18,670 nucleotides of DNA from an uncultured Clostridia bacterium. Its GTDB lineage: Bacteria; Bacillota; Clostridia; TANB77; CAG-465. Position 1 is the stretch's first letter. Each line of letters starts with the position of its first letter. This document shows, piece after piece, positions 2,773 to 14,847 of this stretch. A model generated the notes under the pieces. The model ran no database searches. It was not told the DNA's origin and worked only from the letters and a program-made list of their open reading frames with translations. The stretch spans positions 1 to 18,670 of the forward strand of contig CALWOE010000025.1 in NCBI GenBank assembly GCA_944383035.1, given 5' to 3'. The position numbers and the translations under genes are program-made.

Positions 2773-3591
2773 ATGGAGATTATATTGTTTTTTCTAAAGG
2801 ATGTTTTTTTACCTATAATTATTACTGTTATAACTCTTTTACTTGGAATTTTGATAGATTACAAAAAAAATAAACCAGTAATTCTTGTATCTCATGATGA
2901 ACATGGAAAAAATTTAAAAATAGATTTAAATAGTAAAATAAGTTATTTAGATGGATTTTTTTATGATAAGAGAAAATATAATGAAGAATTAGTAAACTTT
3001 TTAAAAAAGAAAAAATATTATATATTTTTCAACTTACCAAATTTATTGGATGATTTGGTTATATATTTTAGAAATAAAGATGTTAAAACTAATAGTTTAA
3101 ATTTTTATAGTGCAAATAAATATTTAGTTAAAGATATACTAGTAAAATTTAAAAATGATGAAGATTTTCTTGAAATATTAAAAAAATATGAGACGTACAA
3201 AGATAATTCAAAATGGTTAATAAAATTTACTAATATTGGAAAAAGTGAAGCATATGATTTTAAAATAGTTGAACTAGTTGAAAATAAAGGTAATAGTGTA
3301 ATTTATACCAAAACTTTAAATAAAGGAGATAGTTATAATTTAATTTTATATTATTTTGATAAATCTATAAGAGTAAATACATTCAATTATTCATATAAAA
3401 GTAAATTTGAGTTTGGTTATTCAAAAACTGAAAAAATAGAATTTTATCTTATAAATAAAAAAAGATATAACAAAAAAGACGAAAAATTGTTTATAGTAGA
3501 ATATAAAGATTCCAACGCAAGAAAAAAAGAATATTATTTTTGTGCAAAAAATATAAAGCAAAAAGAATTAAATAAAAAAAATTACAAATAA
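2773..3591 (+). CDS. Hypothetical membrane-anchored protein, 272 aa
   Basis: SD agagga upstream. N-terminal hydrophobic helix (FLPIIITVITLLLGILI) followed by a Lys/Asn/Tyr-rich soluble region. No recognisable motif. Confidence 0.65.
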   Translation: MEIILFFLKDVFLPIIITVITLLLGILIDYKKNKPVILVSHDEHGKNLKIDLNSKISYLDGFFYDKRKYNEELVNFLKKKKYYIFFNLPNLLDDLVIYFRNKDVKTNSLNFYSANKYLVKDILVKFKNDEDFLEILKKYETYKDNSKWLIKFTNIGKSEAYDFKIVELVENKGNSVIYTKTLNKGDSYNLILYYFDKSIRVNTFNYSYKSKFEFGYSKTEKIEFYLINKKRYNKKDEKLFIVEYKDSNARKKEYYFCAKNIKQKELNKKNYK

Positions 3592-3598
3592 TAATTGT

Positions 3599-3946
3599 AT
3601 GATATATGTAGTTAGTTTTTTAGTAGGAATTTTAAATGGACTTTTTGCAAGTGGAGCTGGACAATTTTTAGTTTTTTATTTAATTTATATTTTAAAGACG
3701 GAAACACATAAAGCAAGAGCTCTTAGTGTTTCCGTTTTATCTATATCAAGTATTATATCAATTATAGGATATAAAAATTATACCAATGTAAATTACTTAT
3801 ATCTTTTAATAATATTTTTTATAGCTATAATATCTTCATATCTTGGAACTAAAATAATGAAAAATTTAAGAGCAGAAATAATAAATTTGATATCTGGAAT
3901 TTTAATAGTAAGTCTTACAATAATAAGATTTTTCTTAGGAGGTTAA
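3599..3946 (+). CDS. Half-size (about 4-TM) TSUP / TauE-SafE family membrane protein
   Basis: 115 aa, almost entirely hydrophobic. Gly-rich first-helix motif GLFASGAGQFLVF resembles the TSUP GxGGG motif. No obvious SD. Confidence 0.65.
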   Translation: MIYVVSFLVGILNGLFASGAGQFLVFYLIYILKTETHKARALSVSVLSISSIISIIGYKNYTNVNYLYLLIIFFIAIISSYLGTKIMKNLRAEIINLISGILIVSLTIIRFFLGG

Positions 3947-3947
3947 T

Positions 3948-4352
3948 ATGATTTTTAAATTTGTAATTATAGCATTTGTAAGCTCAGTAATTGCAAGTAT
4001 GGGAATTGGTGGAGGTTCAATATTTATACTACTTTCATCACTTTTTAATCTTTTTCCATATAAAGAAGTAAAATTCTATAATTTATTTATGTTTATAATA
4101 ACAGGTTTTATAGCAACTATTTTTAACATAAAAAACAAAAAAGTAAATTTAAAAGAAATTATAAAAATAGTATTACCAGTTATTTTTGGTAGTATGTTTG
4201 GGATTTTTTTATTAAAATTTATTGATGATAATATATTAAGAAGTATTTTCTATATAATAATAATGTTTTTTGGAATATATGAAATAATTTCAAGTTTAAT
4301 TAAAATAAAAAATGCAAAAGATAATAAAAAAAGAAAGGAGGCGTTATTATGA
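3948..4352 (+). CDS. Half-size (about 4-TM) TSUP / TauE-SafE family membrane protein
   Basis: 134 aa with the motif SMGIGGGSIFILL typical of TSUP repeat units. A strong SD aggagg lies inside the end of the preceding gene, and the ATG is 1 nt after its stop. Confidence 0.7.
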   Translation: MIFKFVIIAFVSSVIASMGIGGGSIFILLSSLFNLFPYKEVKFYNLFMFIITGFIATIFNIKNKKVNLKEIIKIVLPVIFGSMFGIFLLKFIDDNILRSIFYIIIMFFGIYEIISSLIKIKNAKDNKKRKEALL

Positions 4353-4486
4353 AATTTGCAAAAGGTGCTGTAATTGGAATGATAGCCGGAACTGTTCTAG
4401 GAGTTATGAATAGTGAGAATATAAAAACTGCTTTTAATAAAACAAAGCATGAAGTTAAAAAAATGAAAAAGAAATATCATATGTAA
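4349..4486 (+). CDS. Small 45-aa protein with a Gly-zipper helix (YtxH-like), absent from the ORF track
   Basis: ATGA start/stop overlap with the preceding gene and SD aaaggagg at 4334-4341. Translation is MKFAKGAVIGMIAGTVLGVMNSENIKTAFNKTKHEVKKMKKKYHM. A terminator follows. Confidence 0.55.
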   Translation: MKFAKGAVIGMIAGTVLGVMNSENIKTAFNKTKHEVKKMKKKYHM

Positions 4487-4495
4487 TTTTTAAGT

Positions 4496-4528
4496 AAGGT
4501 GTATTTAAAAAAATATACCTTATATTTT
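4496..4528 (+). terminator. Putative intrinsic terminator after the TSUP/small-peptide genes
   Basis: 9-bp stem aaggtgtat (4496-4504) / atatacctt (4513-4521) with one G-U pair, 8-nt A-rich loop, then atatttt. Confidence 0.5.
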
Positions 4529-4551
4529 AATGTTATATTTTTGTTATTTTG

Positions 4552-4580
4552 TTGATTTTTGTTTTTAAATAATATATACT
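4552..4580 (+). promoter_or_regulatory. Putative sigma-A promoter of pflB
   Basis: TTGATT (4552-4557), 17-nt spacer, TATACT (4575-4580), about 30 nt upstream of the pflB SD. Confidence 0.45.
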
Positions 4581-4610
4581 AAATCTGTATGATAAAAATA
4601 AGGAGGAAAT

Positions 4611-6854
4611 ATGGAGGATATTAAAAAATTAGCATGGAAAAACTTTAATAAAGGTGTTTGGTGTGATAAGGTGGATGTAAGAGATTTTATATTAAAAAAT
4701 TATTCACCATACACAGGAGATGATTCATTTCTTTCAGGACCTACAGAAAAAACTACAAAATTATGGGAAAAAGTATCAAAACTGATGGAAGATGAAAGAC
4801 AAAATGGTGGAGTATTAGATGCGGATACATCAATAATATCAACTATAAATTCTCATGATGCAGGTTATGTAGATAAAGATTTAGAAATAATAGTTGGTTT
4901 ACAAACAGATAAACCATTAAAAAGAGCTATGATGCCAAATGGTGGTATAAGAACAGCAAAAGGTGCATTAGAAGAATTTGGATATAAAATGGATGAAAAT
5001 GTAGTAAATATTTATGAAAATTATAGAAAAACTCATAATCAAGGAGTTTTTGATGCATATACTCCAGAAATCAGAGCTTGTAGAAAAAGTGGAATAATAA
5101 CTGGACTTCCAGATGCATATGGTAGAGGAAGAATAATAGGTGATTACAGAAGACTTGCACTATATGGACTAAATTTTTTAATTGAACAAAAAGAATTAGA
5201 TAAAAAAAGACTTGAAGTAGATACTATGACAGAAGAGGTTATAAGAAGACGTGAAGAAGTTACAGAACAAATAAATGCATTAAAAGAATTGGGAGAAATG
5301 ACTAAAAAATATGGTATTGATGTTTCATATCCTGCTATAAATGCAAAAGAAGCTGTTCAATTTACATATTTTGCTTATCTTGCAGCAATAAAAGAACAAA
5401 ATGGTGCTGCAATGAGTTTAGGTAGAGTATCAACATTTTTAGATATATATATTAAAAGAGACATGGATGCTGGTTTATTAACTGAAGAACAAGCGCAAGA
5501 ATTAATGGATCAATTTATTATAAAATTAAGAATGGTAAGATTTTTAAGAACAAAAGCATATAATGCTTTATTTGCTGGTGATCCAAACTGGGTAACAGAA
5601 TCTATTGGCGGAATGAGTAATAATGGTAATACACTTGTTACAAAAAATTCATTTAGAGTGCTTCAAACTCTATATAATTTGGGACCTGCACCCGAACCAA
5701 ATTTAACTGTATTGTGGTCTAATAAATTACCTGATGGATTTAAAAAATATTGTGCAAAGGTTTCAATAGATACTAGTGCAATACAATATGAAAATGACGA
5801 CTTAATGAGAGAATACTATGGAGATGATTATTCTATAGCTTGTTGCGTATCTGCAATGAGAACTGGAAAACAAATGCAATTTTTTGGTGCAAGATGTAAT
5901 TTGGCAAAATCACTTTTATATGCTATAAATTCTGGAAAAGATGAAATATCTGGTGTTCAAGTAGGACCAGAAGTATCAGAACTTACAGGTGAATATTTAG
6001 ACTATGATGAAGTAATGAAAAGACTTGATAATGTATTTGATTGGGTGGCAGGAGTATATATAAATGCACTTAATATAATACATTATATGCATGATAAATA
6101 TTGTTACGAAAGATTACAAATGGCTTTTCATGATTTAGATATAAAAAGAACTATGGCGTGTGGAATTGCGGGATTATCTGTAGTAGTTGATTCTTTAAGT
6201 GCAATTAAATATGCAAAAGTAAAACCAATAAGAGATGAAAGAGGAATAGCTGTAGATTTTGAAGTGGAAGGAGAATATCCATGCTTTGGTAATGATGATG
6301 AAAGAGTTGATGAGATAGCATTAAAAGTACAAAAAATGTTTATGGATAAATTGAAAAAACATCCTACATATAGAAATTCAGAACAAACAATGTCAATTCT
6401 TACAATAACATCAAATGTCGTTTATGGTGAAAAAACAGGAACAACTCCTGATGGTAGACAAAAAGGAGAGCCTTTTGCACCTGGAGCAAATCCAATGTAT
6501 AATAGAGAAAAAAGTGGTATAATAGCAGCTTTAAATTCTGTAGCAAAACTTGATTATGAAGAAAGTTTAGATGGAATATCTTATACATTTTCATTTGTAC
6601 CATCTGTTCTTGGAAAAGATAAAGATGAAAAAGTAGATACATTAAAAGTATTACTTGATTCATATTTTGAACAATGTGGACATCATTTAAATGTAAATGT
6701 ATTTGACAGAGAAGTATTATTAGATGCAATGGATCATCCAGAAAAATATCCTCAACTAACAATAAGAGTATCTGGATATGCTGTTAATTTTGTAAAATTA
6801 TCAAGAAAACATCAATTAGATGTTATAGCAAGAACATTCCATGATAAAAGATAA
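4611..6854 (+). CDS. pflB: Pyruvate formate-lyase (formate C-acetyltransferase)
   Basis: 747 aa. Glycyl-radical motif RVSGYAVNF near the C-terminus and the catalytic Cys pair in IACCVSAM. Overall PFL-type sequence. SD aggagg upstream. Confidence 0.97.
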
Positions 6855-9087: not shown

Positions 9088-9209
9088 ATCGAGAGTGCAT
9101 ATAAGTTTAAAAAAATGAGCTATGCAGCCTATGATTAGGTACACTAGTATGAATATCTTCATACAAGGAGTCTTGGTATAAGACTTTTTGTATGAGGATA
9201 TTTTTTTTT
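9088..9209 (+). promoter_or_regulatory. Structured 5' leader ending in an intrinsic terminator (unclassified riboswitch or attenuator candidate)
   Basis: 18-bp terminator stem 9157-9174 / 9180-9197 (3 G-U pairs, loop ggtat) followed by ata plus T9 (9201-9209). A competing 7-bp hairpin gtatgaa / ttcatac (9147-9164) overlaps the terminator 5' arm. No credible promoter lies between the terminator and the ATG at 9267. Confidence 0.6.
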
Positions 9210-9266: not shown

Positions 9267-9548
9267 ATGTCTAAAGATTATGTCTTTTTTTCATTTGTTG
9301 GTAAAGCTTATAACGTTTTGAAAAATATAAATGGTGTAAAGATTTTATCATATGAAGATGAAGAAGGTGAAATGGAAAATGAAAATTCATATGTTTTAGA
9401 AATTACTTCTAATATGGATTATCCTAAGATTCTTAGACAAATTGTTGAGAGTACTCAAAATATGGGTATTAATTTGACAAAAATGTATTTTTTAGATGAA
9501 AAAGCTGTAACTGAAGTTATGGCTTTTTCTATTTTTGGTATTAGTTAA
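9267..9548 (+). CDS. Hypothetical small acidic protein, 93 aa
   Basis: Strong SD aggagg (9252-9257) and an ORF with Glu-rich centre (EDEEGEMENEN). No recognisable motif. Confidence 0.6.
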   Translation: MSKDYVFFSFVGKAYNVLKNINGVKILSYEDEEGEMENENSYVLEITSNMDYPKILRQIVESTQNMGINLTKMYFLDEKAVTEVMAFSIFGIS

Positions 9549-9680: not shown

Positions 9681-10004
9681 ATGGTTTATAAGAAAATAAC
9701 TTTAGTTGCTATAATGTTAGCTATAATTGCAGCTGTTGTTTCAAGCTTTACATTTGGTGCAACTGATACATTAACAAACGATAAAATAATTGATTCAACA
9801 TTACAAATATTAATATTACTTCAAAAATATTCTTGGCCAATAATAACTTTTGTATTTATATATGCTTTGTATCAATATTATGTTGCTGGTTCAGAAGTTA
9901 TAGAGCAAAAGATTTTAGGTCAAAGATTGATAGTTGGAATAGCAATATTTATGGTAATTTTACAATGTATGCCACTTGTTTATGCATTTTTAATAGTAAA
10001 TTAA
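9681..10004 (+). CDS. Small membrane protein, 107 aa: signal-peptide-like N-terminus plus two TM helices (VirB2/TrbC-like topology)
   Basis: SD gaggg upstream. N-terminal KK plus hydrophobic stretch ending FTFGA. Two further hydrophobic helices (WPIITFVFIYALYQYYV and LIVGIAIFMVILQCMPLVYAFLIV) are separated by a short polar/basic loop. Confidence 0.7.
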   Translation: MVYKKITLVAIMLAIIAAVVSSFTFGATDTLTNDKIIDSTLQILILLQKYSWPIITFVFIYALYQYYVAGSEVIEQKILGQRLIVGIAIFMVILQCMPLVYAFLIVN

Positions 10005-10034: not shown

Positions 10035-11858
10035 ATGAAGGTACTTTTTGGAATTAATAATGATAATACAGTAAAGGATATAGTTGAATTTTATCAAGAT
10101 AGATATAAAGAAAAAATTGAATATAAAAATGTTTATTATTTTAAACAATTTATTCAAGAGTTATCAGCAAATAAATATGATAGGGCAGTAATGTTAGAAG
10201 AACTTGAAAAGTTTCCAACTAATAATTATGCACAAATTGATGATTATTTATTTAAAAATATTGATAGTATGACTGATGTGTTTGATGCAAAAGATATTAT
10301 ATATATAGCATCTGATAGAAGAAAACTTGGAGATGAATTTTTATCTAAGTTATTTAATCTTGGTATATATACAGTGCTTACAGACCAAAATAGAACAAAA
10401 GGAAAAGTTTGCGAAGGAATACATGCACCATATCTAAAGAAAGATGTAAAAAAATATTATGATAATGTTGTTGGAGAAAATGTATATAAATCAGGAGAGG
10501 TTTCTGAAATAGAAATTCAAAGAATTATATCATATTATAAAAATCAAAATGGTGTTGCAGATAAATATAATGAAATATTTGATAGAATTGCTACTCAATA
10601 TACAAACGAGCAATTAAAAGTAATTATTAATTTTTTACCTGCAGATGTAAAACAACATTTGGCTTTTAATAATGAAAAATATAAAGCATTAATGAATACA
10701 GTAAATCCAACAGTACAACCTACACCAGGTGTAAATAATGTGGCACAACAAACAGGAAATGAAAAGCAATCTCAACCGCAACCTCAACAATCACAACAAG
10801 TTCAAAAAACACAGCATATAATTGATAATAACAAAGATGTTAGCAATCGTGTTGAAGTAAAAAAAGAACCTCAAATAGTTGAGAAAATTGTAGTTCAACA
10901 GGTTGAAAAACCAGCATCTGTTGTAACACAAGTAGTTGAAAAAGAAGTTGTAAGATCTGTTTATGAAGTACCAAAAGATTATAAAAAAGTTGTATGTTTT
11001 GTTGGAGCTCCAAAAGTTGGAACAACGTTTTGTATAAATGCAGTTGCTACATTTTTAGCTAGAAATAAAGTAAAAACTGCAATTGTGGATGTAACAAGAA
11101 AAAGAGATACATATACAATATATACATATGATAATGAAGGAAAAAGAAATATTGCAGCACAAAGTATGAAATATGCTTCAAGTGGTATGAATGAACCATT
11201 AATATATGATAAATTAAGTATTTATACAGGAATGCCAGGTGAAGATAGAAAAACATATAATGCAAATGTTGCAATAGAAACAATAATGGCAAATAATAAT
11301 GTTATACTAATAGATTCTGATTTTACTACACCAACAGATTTCTTTAGATTATGTCAAGAAATTTATTTGGTACAAGACATGGATATTTTAAATATAAATC
11401 AAGTAACTATGTTTTTAAGAGAATTAAAATCTAGAGGTATACCACTTAGCAAATTAAGAGTAATAATTAATAAACATGTCAAATGTGCATTAACATCTAG
11501 AGATATATTAGATGGTATTGCTACATATACAAGTTATGACTTAAAAATGTATGATGAACTTTTAAATGTAAATCAGATTCCATATTTTATACTACCATTT
11601 GATGTAGAAAATTATACAAAATATGTTGAAATGGTGTATAAGTATTCTAATAAATTTGCTACATTTACAGATTTCTTTAAAGAAAACATTTTTAAAGTTA
11701 TAAATTCAATATATCCTGTTGCTGGTACTATGAAGGGAAGTTCTTCTTCTTACTCAGCACCTACTCAAAGAAAAAGTAGAATGTCTGGTATATTTAAGAA
11801 AACCCCAAGATATTCTAATACTACCACAACATCAGGATTTGAAAAAGAAGTAAAATAA
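10035..11858 (+). CDS. Pseudo-receiver / Q,P-rich linker / ParA-MinD-like domain protein with degenerate Walker A, 607 aa
   Basis: N-terminal ~140 aa has an alternating REC-like pattern (KVLFGINNDN...AVMLEELE...IIYIASD...GIYTVLT) without the Asp pocket or Lys. The linker is QPTPGVNNVAQQTGNEKQSQPQPQQSQQVQ. The C-terminal domain has VCFVGAPKVGTTF in place of the xKGGxGK[ST] motif, a Walker-B-like VILIDSD, and a MinD-like layout (LVQDMD..., RVIINKH). Confidence 0.75.
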   Translation: MKVLFGINNDNTVKDIVEFYQDRYKEKIEYKNVYYFKQFIQELSANKYDRAVMLEELEKFPTNNYAQIDDYLFKNIDSMTDVFDAKDIIYIASDRRKLGDEFLSKLFNLGIYTVLTDQNRTKGKVCEGIHAPYLKKDVKKYYDNVVGENVYKSGEVSEIEIQRIISYYKNQNGVADKYNEIFDRIATQYTNEQLKVIINFLPADVKQHLAFNNEKYKALMNTVNPTVQPTPGVNNVAQQTGNEKQSQPQPQQSQQVQKTQHIIDNNKDVSNRVEVKKEPQIVEKIVVQQVEKPASVVTQVVEKEVVRSVYEVPKDYKKVVCFVGAPKVGTTFCINAVATFLARNKVKTAIVDVTRKRDTYTIYTYDNEGKRNIAAQSMKYASSGMNEPLIYDKLSIYTGMPGEDRKTYNANVAIETIMANNNVILIDSDFTTPTDFFRLCQEIYLVQDMDILNINQVTMFLRELKSRGIPLSKLRVIINKHVKCALTSRDILDGIATYTSYDLKMYDELLNVNQIPYFILPFDVENYTKYVEMVYKYSNKFATFTDFFKENIFKVINSIYPVAGTMKGSSSSYSAPTQRKSRMSGIFKKTPRYSNTTTTSGFEKEVK

Positions 11859-11883: not shown

Positions 11884-12957
11884 ATGTGGATACTTACAAT
11901 ATTGTTAGCTTTAGCATTGTTAGCGGCAATAGTATTTATTGTAATGATGGCAAACTCGTATAATAAAAACTTAAATTATTATATGCTTTTATCAAAAAAT
12001 GTATCTTCAATGAGTGCTGTTGAAAAAATGTTTGCTATAATGGGGAAAAATACAAGTGCAGAAGAAAAAATAGTACTTGCAAATAAAGTAATGTTAGAGT
12101 TATATTCTCCTAAATATTCTACTTTATCAATATATGATGGAAATACATATACTGCAAAAGCAACAAATGTTGAAAAGACATATATTGAAAGTGTAGCTAA
12201 TGTTGCAGAAGAAGTTGACTTTAAAGCTAATGCTAGTAAAAATGTTTCTAAGTATTTGACAACAACAGCAAATAAGACACTTACATATAAAAGTGCAATG
12301 GAAAGAAAAATAAAATCAGCAATGTTTTCACCAATATATTATAACAATACATATCTTGGATTTTGGTTATTAGAAGATACAAGAGAAGGAGCTTTTGATA
12401 ATATCCCAAAAGAAGAAATTCAAAAGCTAAAAAATAATCTTGGAATATTCTTAGAAAATATAGCTTTCCAAAATACTATAGAAATTGCTGAAAATACAGA
12501 TAAACAAACAACTTTCTATAATAATATGTATTTATATTCAAATATAAGACAAAAACTTATTGATAAAGATACAAGTGCTTTAACATTAATTTGTTTAGAT
12601 AACTTACCTGAAATAAATGAAAAGTACAATAGAAATTTAGGAAATGCACTTTTAATAAAAGCTGCAAATGCACTTAAAGAAATTGTAGGTAATGATTCGT
12701 TTTTAGTAAGATATAGTGGACTTAGATTTTTGGTTGTTACTCCTGATTGTAATGCAGGTGTTGTTCAACCTATGATGGATAGATATTTAACAAAATTAAA
12801 AAACGAAGTAGAGTATGTAAGTGATGAACCAGTTAATTTAAATGCACAAGTTGTTATACATACTTTTAGAAAGCAGAATAATATTGAAGTAGAAATAAGA
12901 AAAATGGTAAAACATATAGATAATATGAAACAAACAAATATAATACAAATTATATAA
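11884..12957 (+). CDS. Membrane-anchored sensor protein with a degenerate GGDEF domain, 357 aa
   Basis: N-terminal TM helix (WILTILLALALLAAIVFIVMM). The central region has a GAF-like pattern (SPIYYNNTYLGFWLLED...). The C-terminal GGDEF-like fold has LTLICLDNLPEINEKYNRNLGNALL (metal and substrate residues replaced) and RYSGLRFLV in place of RxGGDEF. Confidence 0.75.
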   Translation: MWILTILLALALLAAIVFIVMMANSYNKNLNYYMLLSKNVSSMSAVEKMFAIMGKNTSAEEKIVLANKVMLELYSPKYSTLSIYDGNTYTAKATNVEKTYIESVANVAEEVDFKANASKNVSKYLTTTANKTLTYKSAMERKIKSAMFSPIYYNNTYLGFWLLEDTREGAFDNIPKEEIQKLKNNLGIFLENIAFQNTIEIAENTDKQTTFYNNMYLYSNIRQKLIDKDTSALTLICLDNLPEINEKYNRNLGNALLIKAANALKEIVGNDSFLVRYSGLRFLVVTPDCNAGVVQPMMDRYLTKLKNEVEYVSDEPVNLNAQVVIHTFRKQNNIEVEIRKMVKHIDNMKQTNIIQII

Positions 12958-13685: not shown

Positions 13686-14051
13686 ATGGAAAATAACGAA
13701 AATGAAGAATTTTTATCATGTGGTACATCTTGTGAAACATGCCCAGGATGTGGACATCATCATGATGATGAATATCTTGATCATGAAGACGATAGAATAA
13801 TGATTCTTACAGATGAAGATGGTAACGATGTAAAATTTGAAAGATTAGATGTTATTGTTTTAGATGATAAAGAATATTTCATTATGGCAAAAATTGAAGA
13901 AGAAGAAAACGAAGATGAAGATTTTGAAGTAGTAATACTTGAATTAAAACAAGATGAAAATGGTGAAATGGTTTTAGATACAGTTACTGATGAAAAATTA
14001 GCAGAAAAAGTATTTAATGAATTTAAGGCAAGAAATGAAGATGAAGAATAG
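13686..14051 (+). CDS. DUF1292 (YrzB-like) protein with a Cys/His-rich N-terminal extension
   Basis: Core is ILTDEDGNDVKFERLDVIVLDDKEYFIM...VVILEL, typical of DUF1292, and the protein is acidic. The N-terminus carries CGTSCETCPGCGHHH. SD aaaggagg upstream. Confidence 0.85.
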   Translation: MENNENEEFLSCGTSCETCPGCGHHHDDEYLDHEDDRIMILTDEDGNDVKFERLDVIVLDDKEYFIMAKIEEEENEDEDFEVVILELKQDENGEMVLDTVTDEKLAEKVFNEFKARNEDEE

Positions 14052-14072
14052 CAAAAAGCTATTCTTTTTTTC
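14045..14072 (+). terminator. Intrinsic terminator after the DUF1292 gene
   Basis: Perfect 8-bp stem agaatagc (14045-14052, includes the TAG stop) / gctattct (14058-14065), loop aaaaa, then a T7 run. Confidence 0.75.
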
Positions 14073-14151: not shown

Positions 14152-14847
14152 ATGAAAAATATACAGTTTTGCTCTTTTCAAGAAAATTTACCAAGTGTAA
14201 GTATTTTAGATTTTTTCTATAACACAGTATATATGAAAAATGATAACTTACTTGATAACTTTGATAAATTTACAATAAGTGATAATTATAACTTATATGT
14301 AAAATGGGAATTATTTTCAAAGAATGAAGAAAAGGAGTTTTATTATATTTGTCAATATTCATGCTATAAATATTTACGAGAGTTATATATATTATATACA
14401 AAGAGAAATGTTTTAGATATTGATAAATGTAATATAGGAATATATTATATTAAAAAATATGAACAGGAACCTTTAATTTATGAAAAAAAATTTTTTTATA
14501 GATTTAAAGATTTTTTAATAAAAAAAAGAGATTTATTAATAAAAAATTCAAAAAAAATTAATGATTTATTTGAAATGGATAATTATATAAATTCTTTGTA
14601 TATTGGAATAAATGAAAATTATGAAAAAACAGAATTAGATGATTATTCAATAGGATATTGTAAAAATTTAATTTTTATTAATTCCAAAAAAGATATTCCA
14701 TTTCAAAAAATAAATATATCTAATAATATTATTAATTTAGATTTAAGTGTAATTAAAAGTATTAAATATATTAGATATTTAAATGAAAATACATTATTTT
14801 TAGTAAGTAAAGGTACTGAAAAATATTTTTTAAAAATTATTTCTTAA
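14152..14847 (+). CDS. Hypothetical protein, 231 aa, stand-alone transcription unit
   Basis: GGAGG at 14141-14145, 6 nt before the ATG. Bracketed by its own promoter and terminator. Tyr/Lys/Asn-rich with no TM segment and no recognisable motif. Confidence 0.65.
   Translation: MKNIQFCSFQENLPSVSILDFFYNTVYMKNDNLLDNFDKFTISDNYNLYVKWELFSKNEEKEFYYICQYSCYKYLRELYILYTKRNVLDIDKCNIGIYYIKKYEQEPLIYEKKFFYRFKDFLIKKRDLLIKNSKKINDLFEMDNYINSLYIGINENYEKTELDDYSIGYCKNLIFINSKKDIPFQKINISNNIINLDLSVIKSIKYIRYLNENTLFLVSKGTEKYFLKIIS

Follow-up and report, generated by a model that had tools for sequence, protein, structure and literature searches.

A TadZ-like protein family of gut Clostridia with a fixed, noncanonical P-loop and a possible scaffolding role

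Results

The target gene, its architecture and its family

The DNA considered here, referred to below as the window, is a stretch of 18,670 nucleotides (nt) from contig CALWOE010000025.1 of an uncultured Clostridia bacterium. It has ~24% G+C and the aspect of a Bacillota chromosome, and its gene content includes HflX, pyruvate formate-lyase and its activase, the CCA-adding enzyme, IreB, RuvX, DUF1292, and HtrA. The subject of this study, hereafter the target, is the product of the forward-strand open reading frame (ORF) 10035-11858: a protein of 607 amino acids (aa), read from an ATG with an AGGAG-type ribosome-binding site 7-12 nt 5' of it, in which a low-complexity linker connects a receiver-like N-domain to a P-loop domain of the MinD/ParA class. 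A first-pass annotation, made from the letters of the sequence alone, had described this ORF, its motifs, and the coordinates of its P-loop, and checking the translation returned all of them as described. The domains and motifs assigned here are listed below, with model confidence given as the predicted local distance difference test (pLDDT) of AlphaFold2; both AlphaFold2 predictions were of the target monomer.

10035..10460, forward strand: pseudo-receiver domain, residues 1-142; (beta-alpha)5 fold by AlphaFold2 and Foldseek
10506..10700, forward strand: five-helix bundle, residues 158-222; conserved, pLDDT 82-95 in both models
10707..10961, forward strand: disordered Q/P/V/E/K-rich linker, residues 225-309; pLDDT below 50 (AlphaFold2)
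10962..11729, forward strand: MinD/ParA-class (SIMIBI) P-loop domain, residues 310-565; pLDDT 80-96, Foldseek, Pfam CbiA
11004..11027, forward strand: variant P-loop GAPKVGTT, G324-T331; hhalign register on MinD
11088..11096, forward strand: switch-I equivalent, D352-V-T354, with D352 on MinD D38 and T354 on MinD D40
11313..11321, forward strand: Walker-B equivalent D427-S-D429 in NNVILIDSDF; both Asp essentially invariant
11469..11474, forward strand: N479-K480, closing the RVIINK strand; N in 118/118, K in 110/118
11730..11855, forward strand: disordered C-terminal tail, residues 566-607; pLDDT below 50, candidate membrane-targeting sequence

Full-length homologues of the target, at 56-75% identity, are present in 57 species-level genomes, all of them from uncultured gut Clostridia of the CAG:465, CAG:921, and CAG:1219 types. 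Searched exhaustively, 1.84 billion cluster representatives yielded a family of 407 clusters at 50% identity, 182 of them at E<=1e-30. The N- and C-terminal domains are kept in 59 species-level genomes and in the 407 clusters, while the linker between them varies freely; the target ORF is a real, conserved gene and not a chance ORF. The most divergent genome-derived homologue, at 2919-5315 of locus L058, is 798 aa long and 43% identical to the target, and lies on a contig with 39% G+C. Many database entries of the family contain the N-domain or the C-domain only; these fragments arise where assemblies or gene calls are interrupted at the low-complexity linker (as at L063 4876-8107, with its 200 Ns) and do not represent separate architectures. 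The exceptions among short homologues are P0291 and P0298, which are true stand-alone C-domains and are described below. One full-length homologue, P0002, bears the name "arsenate reductase-like glutaredoxin family protein" in its source, an evident mis-annotation.

As a single sequence, the target had no match in Pfam, whether searched whole or as separate domains, at E-values up to 10, and none in NCBIfam or among PDB sequences (phmmer). Domain assignment therefore required profiles and structure. A full-length family profile searched against the PDB gave spurious Q-rich matches only (e.g., Med15). Because Pfam and NCBIfam miss the family, its genes are annotated as hypothetical, and a specific literature query found no prior account of such a family. 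It is an undescribed family, widespread in gut Clostridia.

The C-terminal domain and its nucleotide pocket

The first-pass annotation had recognized a MinD/ParA layout in the C-terminal part of the target, and both profile and structural comparisons agree. In an alignment of 31 maximally diverse family C-domains (A1), 18 of the 31 members matched Pfam CbiA, the CobQ/CobB/MinD/ParA nucleotide-binding domain, with a best E-value of 4e-6, and 9 of the 31 matched MipZ; the A1 profile also matched CapB in structures of CapA/CapB chimeras (E=0.0015), placing the family's G-T-S over the G-K-S of CapB. Among 315 Foldseek matches at E<=1e-3, the best in the PDB was MinD 4v02 (E=5e-8; TM-score 0.71, normalized to the target), and further matches included the ParA-family ATPase 3ea0, CooC, HypB, Wzc, BcsQ, NifH, and FlhG. 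TadZ 3FKQ did not come up in sequence searches and lay outside the top 50 structural matches. The CbiA, MipZ, and CapB profile matches, together with AlphaFold2 and Foldseek, assign the C-domain to the MinD/ParA-class (SIMIBI) P-loop fold, the seven-stranded alpha/beta fold also seen in NifH. The strands NNVILIDSDF (421-430), LVQDMD (445-450), and RVIINKH (474-480) all occur at the places where they had been reported.

The register of the pocket was taken from an ungapped hhalign alignment of A1 with the sequence of E. coli MinD, which served as alignment target only, and residues were counted in 118 family representatives with a complete C-domain. Several positions are those of a MinD-type nucleotide site. 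The P-loop glycines G324 (MinD G10) and G329 (MinD G15) are Gly in 118/118, the Mg-ligand position T331 (MinD T17) is Ser or Thr in 118/118, and both the switch-I residue D352 (MinD D38) and the Walker-B residue D427 (MinD D120) are Asp in every member; D429, two residues past the latter, is Asp in 117/118. The family thus retains the Walker-B Asp and the Mg-coordinating Ser/Thr. N479, which by its position in the fold we take to be the nucleotide-base contact of MinD and ParA, is invariant, and the next residue, K480, is Lys in 110/118.

The catalytic positions are a different matter. A325, which overlies the signature lysine K11 of MinD, is T in 79 members, A in 27, S in 7, and G, V, and P in 1 each; T330, which overlies the Walker A lysine K16, is T in 107, V in 10, and I in 1. 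Neither position is Lys in any of the 118, so the deviant Walker A motif x-K-G-G-x-x-G-K-[ST], with its two lysines, is absent from the family. T354, at the position of the catalytic base D40, is T in 114, S in 3, and A in 1, and never Asp; the water-activating Asp of MinD (D40) and Soj (D44) is likewise lacking. At K327, on the other hand, the position of a P-loop glycine in MinD (G13), Lys is found in 112/118, and six members are without it. The resulting consensus is G-[TAS]-x-K-x-G-T-[ST], most commonly in the form GTSKNGTS.

This P-loop variant, GxxKxGT[ST], is fixed family-wide and has not decayed. Because the K11, K16, and D40 equivalents are always absent, and K327 and the other pocket residues are kept, the motif is fixed and under selection, in a manner characteristic of a pocket selected for some function other than canonical ATP turnover. 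The three absent residues are those by which MinD/ParA proteins act as hydrolytic, dimer-forming switches, and without them the domain cannot be a hydrolytic switch of the MinD/ParA type. The first-pass annotation had reported a "broken" Walker A without its GK[ST] lysine. The missing lysine is confirmed, with T330 standing over both MinD K16 and the CapB GKS, and no shifted register supplies an intact canonical lysine. Decay, however, is the wrong description of a fixed variant in which nearly all members have gained a Lys where MinD has G13, and the list of catalytic losses was incomplete, since the equivalents of K11 and D40 are lost as well. Nor is the lack of the GK[ST] lysine in itself an anomaly: it is normal for TadZ, whose Walker-A-like consensus, K/R-G-G-x-G-x-S/T, is also without the canonical lysine.

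The N-terminal pseudo-receiver and helical bundle

A first AlphaFold2 run modeled the N-domain poorly, the alignment there being shallow; in a second run, with a deeper alignment (A4, 55 sequences), residues 1-140 reached pLDDT 85-96 and took on a (beta-alpha)5 fold. Its Foldseek neighbors are nearly all response-regulator receivers: the PmrA receiver (TM-score 0.70, root-mean-square deviation ~4 Å over ~131 columns), PorX, RcsB, NarL, and KdpE, at modest E-values of 3e-4 to 1e-2. Profile evidence is sparser. Pfam Response_reg gave weak matches in only 2 of 25 N-domain members, the N-domain profile had no match among PDB sequences, and hhalign of that profile against CheY returned a probability of 0.1% and no usable register; the residue equivalences to receivers, including that to CheY D57, consequently rest on predicted secondary structure.

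The beta/alpha alternation that had been read from the N-terminal sequence is real, and corresponds to a receiver fold in the model. The conserved N-terminal part, however, extends beyond the ~140 aa originally allotted to it, to ~222 aa, including the five-helix bundle, in which V-x-E-x-E-I, F182, and Q188-Y189 are conserved. Family counts and the fold model also agree that the phospho-acceptor Asp and the beta5 Lys are lost. Among family representatives, the beta1 loop reads S/N-N-E/D, and the stretch after beta5 lacks Lys and reads hydrophobic-G-x-D-R; the CheY-type set (the D12/D13 pocket, Asp57, Thr/Ser87, and Lys109) is not matched by the target. The change at the phospho-acceptor position that had been noted at first is no arbitrary replacement: E55, at the end of beta3, is Glu in 100 of 100 representatives, within an E-[DE]-L-E motif. 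Asp phosphorylation of this receiver is impossible. The N-terminus is, accordingly, an atypical receiver without the phospho-acceptor Asp, as in TadZ and CpaE. A change of Asp to Glu can be phosphomimetic in receivers, and by that analogy the fixed Glu suggests a permanently "on-like" receiver surface.

Linker and C-terminal tail

The Q/P/V-rich segment joining the two domains, which includes QSQPQPQQSQQVQ and VEKIVVQQVEKPASVVTQVVEKEVV, is present as first noted and is modeled as disordered; a small 6/12-nt repeat lies within its coding DNA at 10766-10788. In the family, the linker ranges from ~0 to 873 aa (median ~350) and is E/N/K/Q/P-rich. Its counterpart in L058 is ~300 aa of E/K/R/A-rich instead of Q/P-rich sequence, and is probably a coiled coil. 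The linker acts as a spacer, free in both length and sequence.

The C-terminal tail of the target combines a basic-hydrophobic stretch, RKSRMSGIFKK, with a conserved terminal SGFEKEVK. Two terminal motifs recur in the family: basic-G-[LI]-F (RRGLFG, KKGIFGRK, and the RKSRMSGIFKK of the target), and F-S-x-x-M-N-x-T-L-x-x-M-[KR]-x-x-Y. One or the other is borne by 76 of 117 tails. The best 14-residue window of the tails has a helical hydrophobic moment of 0.49, versus 0.37 for their own shuffles (89% of tails; Wilcoxon p=4e-17), and these windows are net positive in charge. The tail is therefore described here as a putative MinD-like membrane-targeting sequence.

Neighboring genes and operon structure

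The first-pass annotation remarked on the absence of a Tad locus around the target, and this part of its account holds: the window contains no Tad genes (T2SSE, T2SSF, Flp), and none flank the target homologues at 59 + 5 related loci. It overlooked, however, that the target belongs to a conserved three-gene module, consisting of a small membrane protein, the target, and a protein with a degenerate GGDEF domain. The relevant features are the following.

9681..10004, forward strand: small membrane protein, 107 aa, the conserved upstream partner; signal-like helix, hydrophobic hairpin, QKYSWP
11884..12957, forward strand: GGDEF-type partner, 357 aa; N-terminal transmembrane helix, conserved middle domain (~40-200), degenerate GGDEF
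14043..14067, forward strand: terminator-like hairpin, the first one 3' of the module, after DUF1292; probable operon end

When all window proteins were compared by tblastn with the 59 related loci, nearly all loci kept the order of 107-aa membrane protein, target, GGDEF protein, IreB, RuvX, and DUF1292. The small membrane protein lies directly 5' of the target in 58 of 59 loci. It has no significant Pfam family; a likeness to T4SS_pilin was insignificant (E=0.25). At the more distant loci L058, L063, L064, and L066, the upstream genes (139-169 aa) are homologous to it at 30-41 bits, and these small proteins have in common a signal-like helix and a hydrophobic hairpin with QKYS-x-P. L063 and L066, whose C-domains are only 36-39% identical, show the same gene order, as does L064 without the GGDEF gene. 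The three-gene arrangement is thus kept from 75% down to 38% identity.

The GGDEF partner adjoins the target in ~53 of 58 close loci. Its domain matches Pfam GGDEF at E=2.5e-14, with RYSG-x-[RK]-[FL] (RYSGLRF in the window) instead of the active-site motif GG[D/E]EF in 54/54 orthologues, and no RxxD I-site is conserved among them. To judge from these motifs, the partner is a dead cyclase, unable to synthesize cyclic di-GMP (c-di-GMP).

No terminator-like hairpin was found between 9681 and 14043, such sites are enriched in the window (7 versus 0.8 expected), and the module is consistent with a single transcription unit. A promoter-like scan of the window gave 52 sites versus 45±7, not above chance, and a search of the window against Rfam found no RNA family. 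Upstream of the module, a further terminator-like hairpin (9154-9200; 20 pairs, then a T-run) lies within a 290-nt intergenic region, opposite the divergent CCA-adding enzyme gene and ~65 nt 5' of the ORF 9267-9548; it could be a leader, an attenuator, or a small RNA. That ORF (93 aa) has a good ribosome-binding site, no homologue in the 59 related loci, and no significant Pfam match, and may be lineage-specific or not a gene.

Elsewhere in the window, the neighboring ORFs 3599-3946 and 3948-4352 (115 + 134 aa) each encode half of a TauE/SafE-type exporter, with the halves swapped: the first ORF matches the C-terminal part of the Pfam model and the second the N-terminal part. Because the pair is kept in most related loci, these are real split or permuted genes and not a frameshift. 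Neither Pfam nor NCBIfam recognizes the ORFs 338-1447, 2773-3591, and 14152-14847 (369, 272, and 231 aa).

Stand-alone paralogues in type VII secretion loci

The stand-alone C-domains P0291 (275 aa) and P0298 (277 aa) match the C-domain profile at E=1e-101, carry the loops GSSKSGTS and GTSKSGTS, and have no N-domain encoded nearby. Their loci are these.

L060, 2148-7828: paralogue locus
L067, 1151-6834: paralogue locus

Each of the two paralogues directly follows a ~1530-aa ATPase with FHA and FtsK/SpoIIIE domains (EssC-type) and an 83-aa gene that is, by eye, YukD/EsaB-like; one of the two loci also has a DUF4176 gene. A 2024 survey of type VII secretion system (T7SS) variants describes TsfV of the clostridial T7SSf as a TadZ-like atypical receiver with a P-loop domain, which InterPro recognizes as TadZ-like_ARD (atypical receiver domain) and an AAA domain (PMC11217815). 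Given both TsfV and the EssC-adjoining paralogues, this fold family appears recurrently tied to membrane secretion machines, and the C-domain paralogues may belong, as an accessory subunit so far unrecognized, to a variant type VII secretion system of clostridia.

Discussion

A non-hydrolyzing scaffold at the membrane

The observed folds, motif states, conservation, and synteny are best accommodated, in our view, if the target is a non-hydrolyzing, TadZ-like scaffold or tether associated with the membrane, a reading to which we give roughly even chances of being correct. Its MinD-fold domain, locked by the loss of the K11, K16, and D40 equivalents, would serve as a static docking or dimerization platform at the membrane. 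The pocket would either hold a nucleotide or similar ligand statically, bound without being hydrolyzed, or keep a fixed "bound-like" conformation; one of these is the most likely state, because the pocket is strongly selected although the hydrolysis residues are gone. The target would be in physical contact with its two co-transcribed partners, the small membrane protein on the one side and the degenerate GGDEF protein with its membrane anchor on the other, in a complex at the membrane, where the amphipathic tail and these partners would help to hold the MinD-like domain. The receiver-like head, with its permanent Glu, would be held out on the flexible linker and recruit another factor. The paralogues beside EssC-type ATPases fit what would be expected of docking subunits of membrane machines, and thereby support the scaffold reading. 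The position of the module beside ireB-ruvX-DUF1292 hints at a role in the cell envelope or division, the most tentative of these suggestions.

Several considerations weigh on the other side. The GGDEF gene is missing from L025, L042, L044, L058, and L064, and this partner is therefore not obligatory. Synteny conserved inside one bacterial class can reflect inheritance and not function. We infer the interaction among the three proteins, and both structure predictions covered the monomer. The test of tail amphipathicity included some windows that, in truncated sequences, ran into the final helix of the domain. The analogy with TadZ is weakened by the different P-loop, by the lack of Tad genes, and by the lack of a Pfam/InterPro-type match. 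Finally, the conserved Mg and phosphate ligands could equally be compatible with real catalysis via a relocated lysine.

Alternative readings

This last consideration leads to an alternative that we regard as unlikely, namely that the target is an active nucleoside triphosphatase (NTPase). K327, at the P-loop position of Gly13 in MinD and Ras, would reach the beta/gamma phosphates in cis, replacing both K16 and the trans-acting signature lysine, and the protein would work as a nucleotide-driven positioning or oscillation switch, comparable to the "with-no-lysine" kinases and to the relocated signature lysine of McdA. That K327 is kept in 112/118, and that the Mg-ligand Ser/Thr, the switch-I Asp, the Walker-B Asp residues, and the base-contact Asn are invariant or nearly so, is typical of a working and not a dead nucleotide site. 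McdA, moreover, shows that ParA-class proteins can shift a phosphate-contacting lysine (PMC6582323). But McdA retains the canonical GK[ST] lysine, and six members of the target family lack K327 entirely. The residue at the MinD D40 position is, in addition, Thr, Ser, or Ala in 118/118; a change of this Asp in MinD and Soj blocks hydrolysis and leaves binding intact. We know of no P-loop NTPase that catalyzes without the GK[ST] lysine, and none turned up in searches either.

A bolder form of the same idea, in our estimation a doubtful one, would make this a "with-no-(canonical)-lysine" P-loop, in which the lysine at the Gly13 position contacts the phosphates in cis and allows either permanent binding or a new mechanism of hydrolysis. 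Together with a permanently "on-like", Glu-bearing receiver and the degenerate GGDEF protein, it would constitute an unrecognized membrane-organizing system, with paralogues in type VII secretion; if so, that system would be conserved across many gut Clostridia.

It is improbable, though conceivable, that the target is instead a pseudo-enzyme without nucleotide, its pocket repurposed for a protein partner or for a phospho-ligand that is not a nucleotide; phospholipid head groups, phosphopeptides, and cyclic dinucleotides of other origin would be examples. Both lysines are gone, the gene adjoins one of GGDEF type, and a MinD-class protein of the Bcs system sits within a c-di-GMP-sensing complex (PMC7439463). 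The residues kept by the family, however, are T/S331, D352, D427, and N479-K480, the same that hold the Mg-nucleotide in MinD and ParA. A cyclic dinucleotide also finds little to recommend it in the partner, which cannot make c-di-GMP and is without a conserved I-site, or in the target, where no c-di-GMP-binding motif was identified.

Far less credible is a divergent bacterial tyrosine kinase (BY-kinase) of the split Firmicute type, with the upstream membrane protein as a CapA-like activator and the C-domain as a CapB-like kinase. The best PDB sequence-profile matches are indeed to CapA/CapB chimeras (E=0.0015) and Wzc, Wzc is among the structural neighbors, and the order of membrane protein and then P-loop protein recalls capA-capB; but the Walker A lysine is absent where the G-K-S of CapB faces the family's G-T-S, the basic, amphipathic tails have no C-terminal tyrosine cluster, the structural match to MinD/ParA exceeds that to Wzc (TM-score 0.71 versus 0.47), the membrane protein has no Wzz/CapA-like Pfam match, and the window has no polysaccharide genes. 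We likewise see hardly any prospect that the target is a true TadZ/CpaE orthologue with its Tad pilus locus elsewhere in the genome: it shares the two-domain architecture and the absence of the canonical Walker A lysine, but in ~60 loci from many species it is never beside tadA/cpaF, tadB/C, or flp, its P-loop lacks the K/R-G-G of TadZ, and it has no Pfam match, whereas InterPro does recognize TsfV as TadZ-like_ARD.

Significance

Bacteria position large structures in the cell mainly with proteins of the MinD/ParA class, whose mechanism is considered to require two P-loop lysines. The target family is new and large; it belongs to the MinD/ParA/TadZ-like class, and its fixed P-loop is without precedent. 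With at least 407 clusters at 50% identity and thousands of sequences, from gut Clostridia that are abundant yet uncultured, it offers a natural experiment on the MinD fold without hydrolysis. It also provides a clean case of three "dead" domains (receiver, MinD-like, and GGDEF) kept together, following the logic of BcsE, BcsQ, and BcsF in an unrelated lineage. In practical terms, a family model would improve the annotation of many gut metagenome-assembled genomes.

Comparison with known systems

TadZ and CpaE resemble the target in combining a non-phosphorylatable N-terminal receiver with a C-terminal MinD/ParA fold from which the canonical GK[ST] lysine is absent, and they act in scaffolding and localization, without motor activity. 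TadZ, for which an E. rectale structure exists (Xu et al., 2012), has an atypical receiver and a MinD-like domain and a role in localization; ATP binding, dimerization, placement of the pilus machinery at a pole, and a gene beside that of the TadA/CpaF ATPase are among the defining features of TadZ and CpaE. The P-loop of the target differs from that of TadZ and CpaE in lacking the K/R-G-G signature and in placing a Lys two positions later: the K/R and the two G positions of TadZ are, in the target family, T/A/S, variable (mostly S/T/N), and K. The target also has Thr at the MinD D40 position, and its two domains are set apart by a long disordered stretch and accompanied by a helical bundle. 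It differs further in its conserved partners, the small membrane protein and the protein with a degenerate GGDEF domain, and in having no Pfam match.

TsfV, proposed as a secretion-system accessory (PMC11217815), is by its description similar to the target: it is clostridial, has a TadZ-like receiver and a P-loop, and lies away from Tad genes. InterPro recognizes TsfV, whereas the target is unrecognized by Pfam, and the window is without T7SS genes.

For the set of partners, the closest mechanistic precedent is BcsE/BcsQ/BcsF, from enterobacterial cellulose secretion. There, BcsE binds BcsQ, a protein of the MinD class, through a degenerate GGDEF domain, and BcsF, a short membrane polypeptide, brings them to the membrane (PMC7439463). 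That trio and the target module have in common a MinD/ParA-class protein, a degenerate receiver, a dead GGDEF domain, and a short membrane polypeptide. The target, however, fuses the degenerate receiver to the MinD-like domain and leaves the degenerate GGDEF to a separate, membrane-anchored protein; the deviant Walker A is intact in BcsQ and not in the target, the degenerate GGDEF of BcsE retains an RxxD c-di-GMP site that the target's partner does not have, and no cellulose synthase genes lie near the target.

McdA is a ParA-type ATPase that positions carboxysomes, in which the signature lysine is replaced by Ser/Thr and a lysine from elsewhere is used (PMC6582323). It keeps the canonical GK[ST] lysine and its ATPase activity, and the substitute lysine lies far from the P-loop and acts in trans; the target family, by contrast, is without both lysines and has its new lysine inside the P-loop. 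Having lost both, the target family departs further from the canonical loop than does either TadZ or McdA.

MinD itself is the best structural match to the C-domain, and its Walker-B Asp, switch-I Asp, and Mg-ligand Thr are kept; the basic, amphipathic tail of the target recalls the membrane-targeting sequence of MinD. Neither minC nor minE was found in the window or in ~60 loci, the K11, K16, and D40 equivalents are absent, and, unlike in MinD, a receiver-like domain and a linker are fused N-terminally. By the defining features of each, then, the target stands outside both TadZ/CpaE, which it most resembles in its working, and MinD, which it most resembles in its fold.

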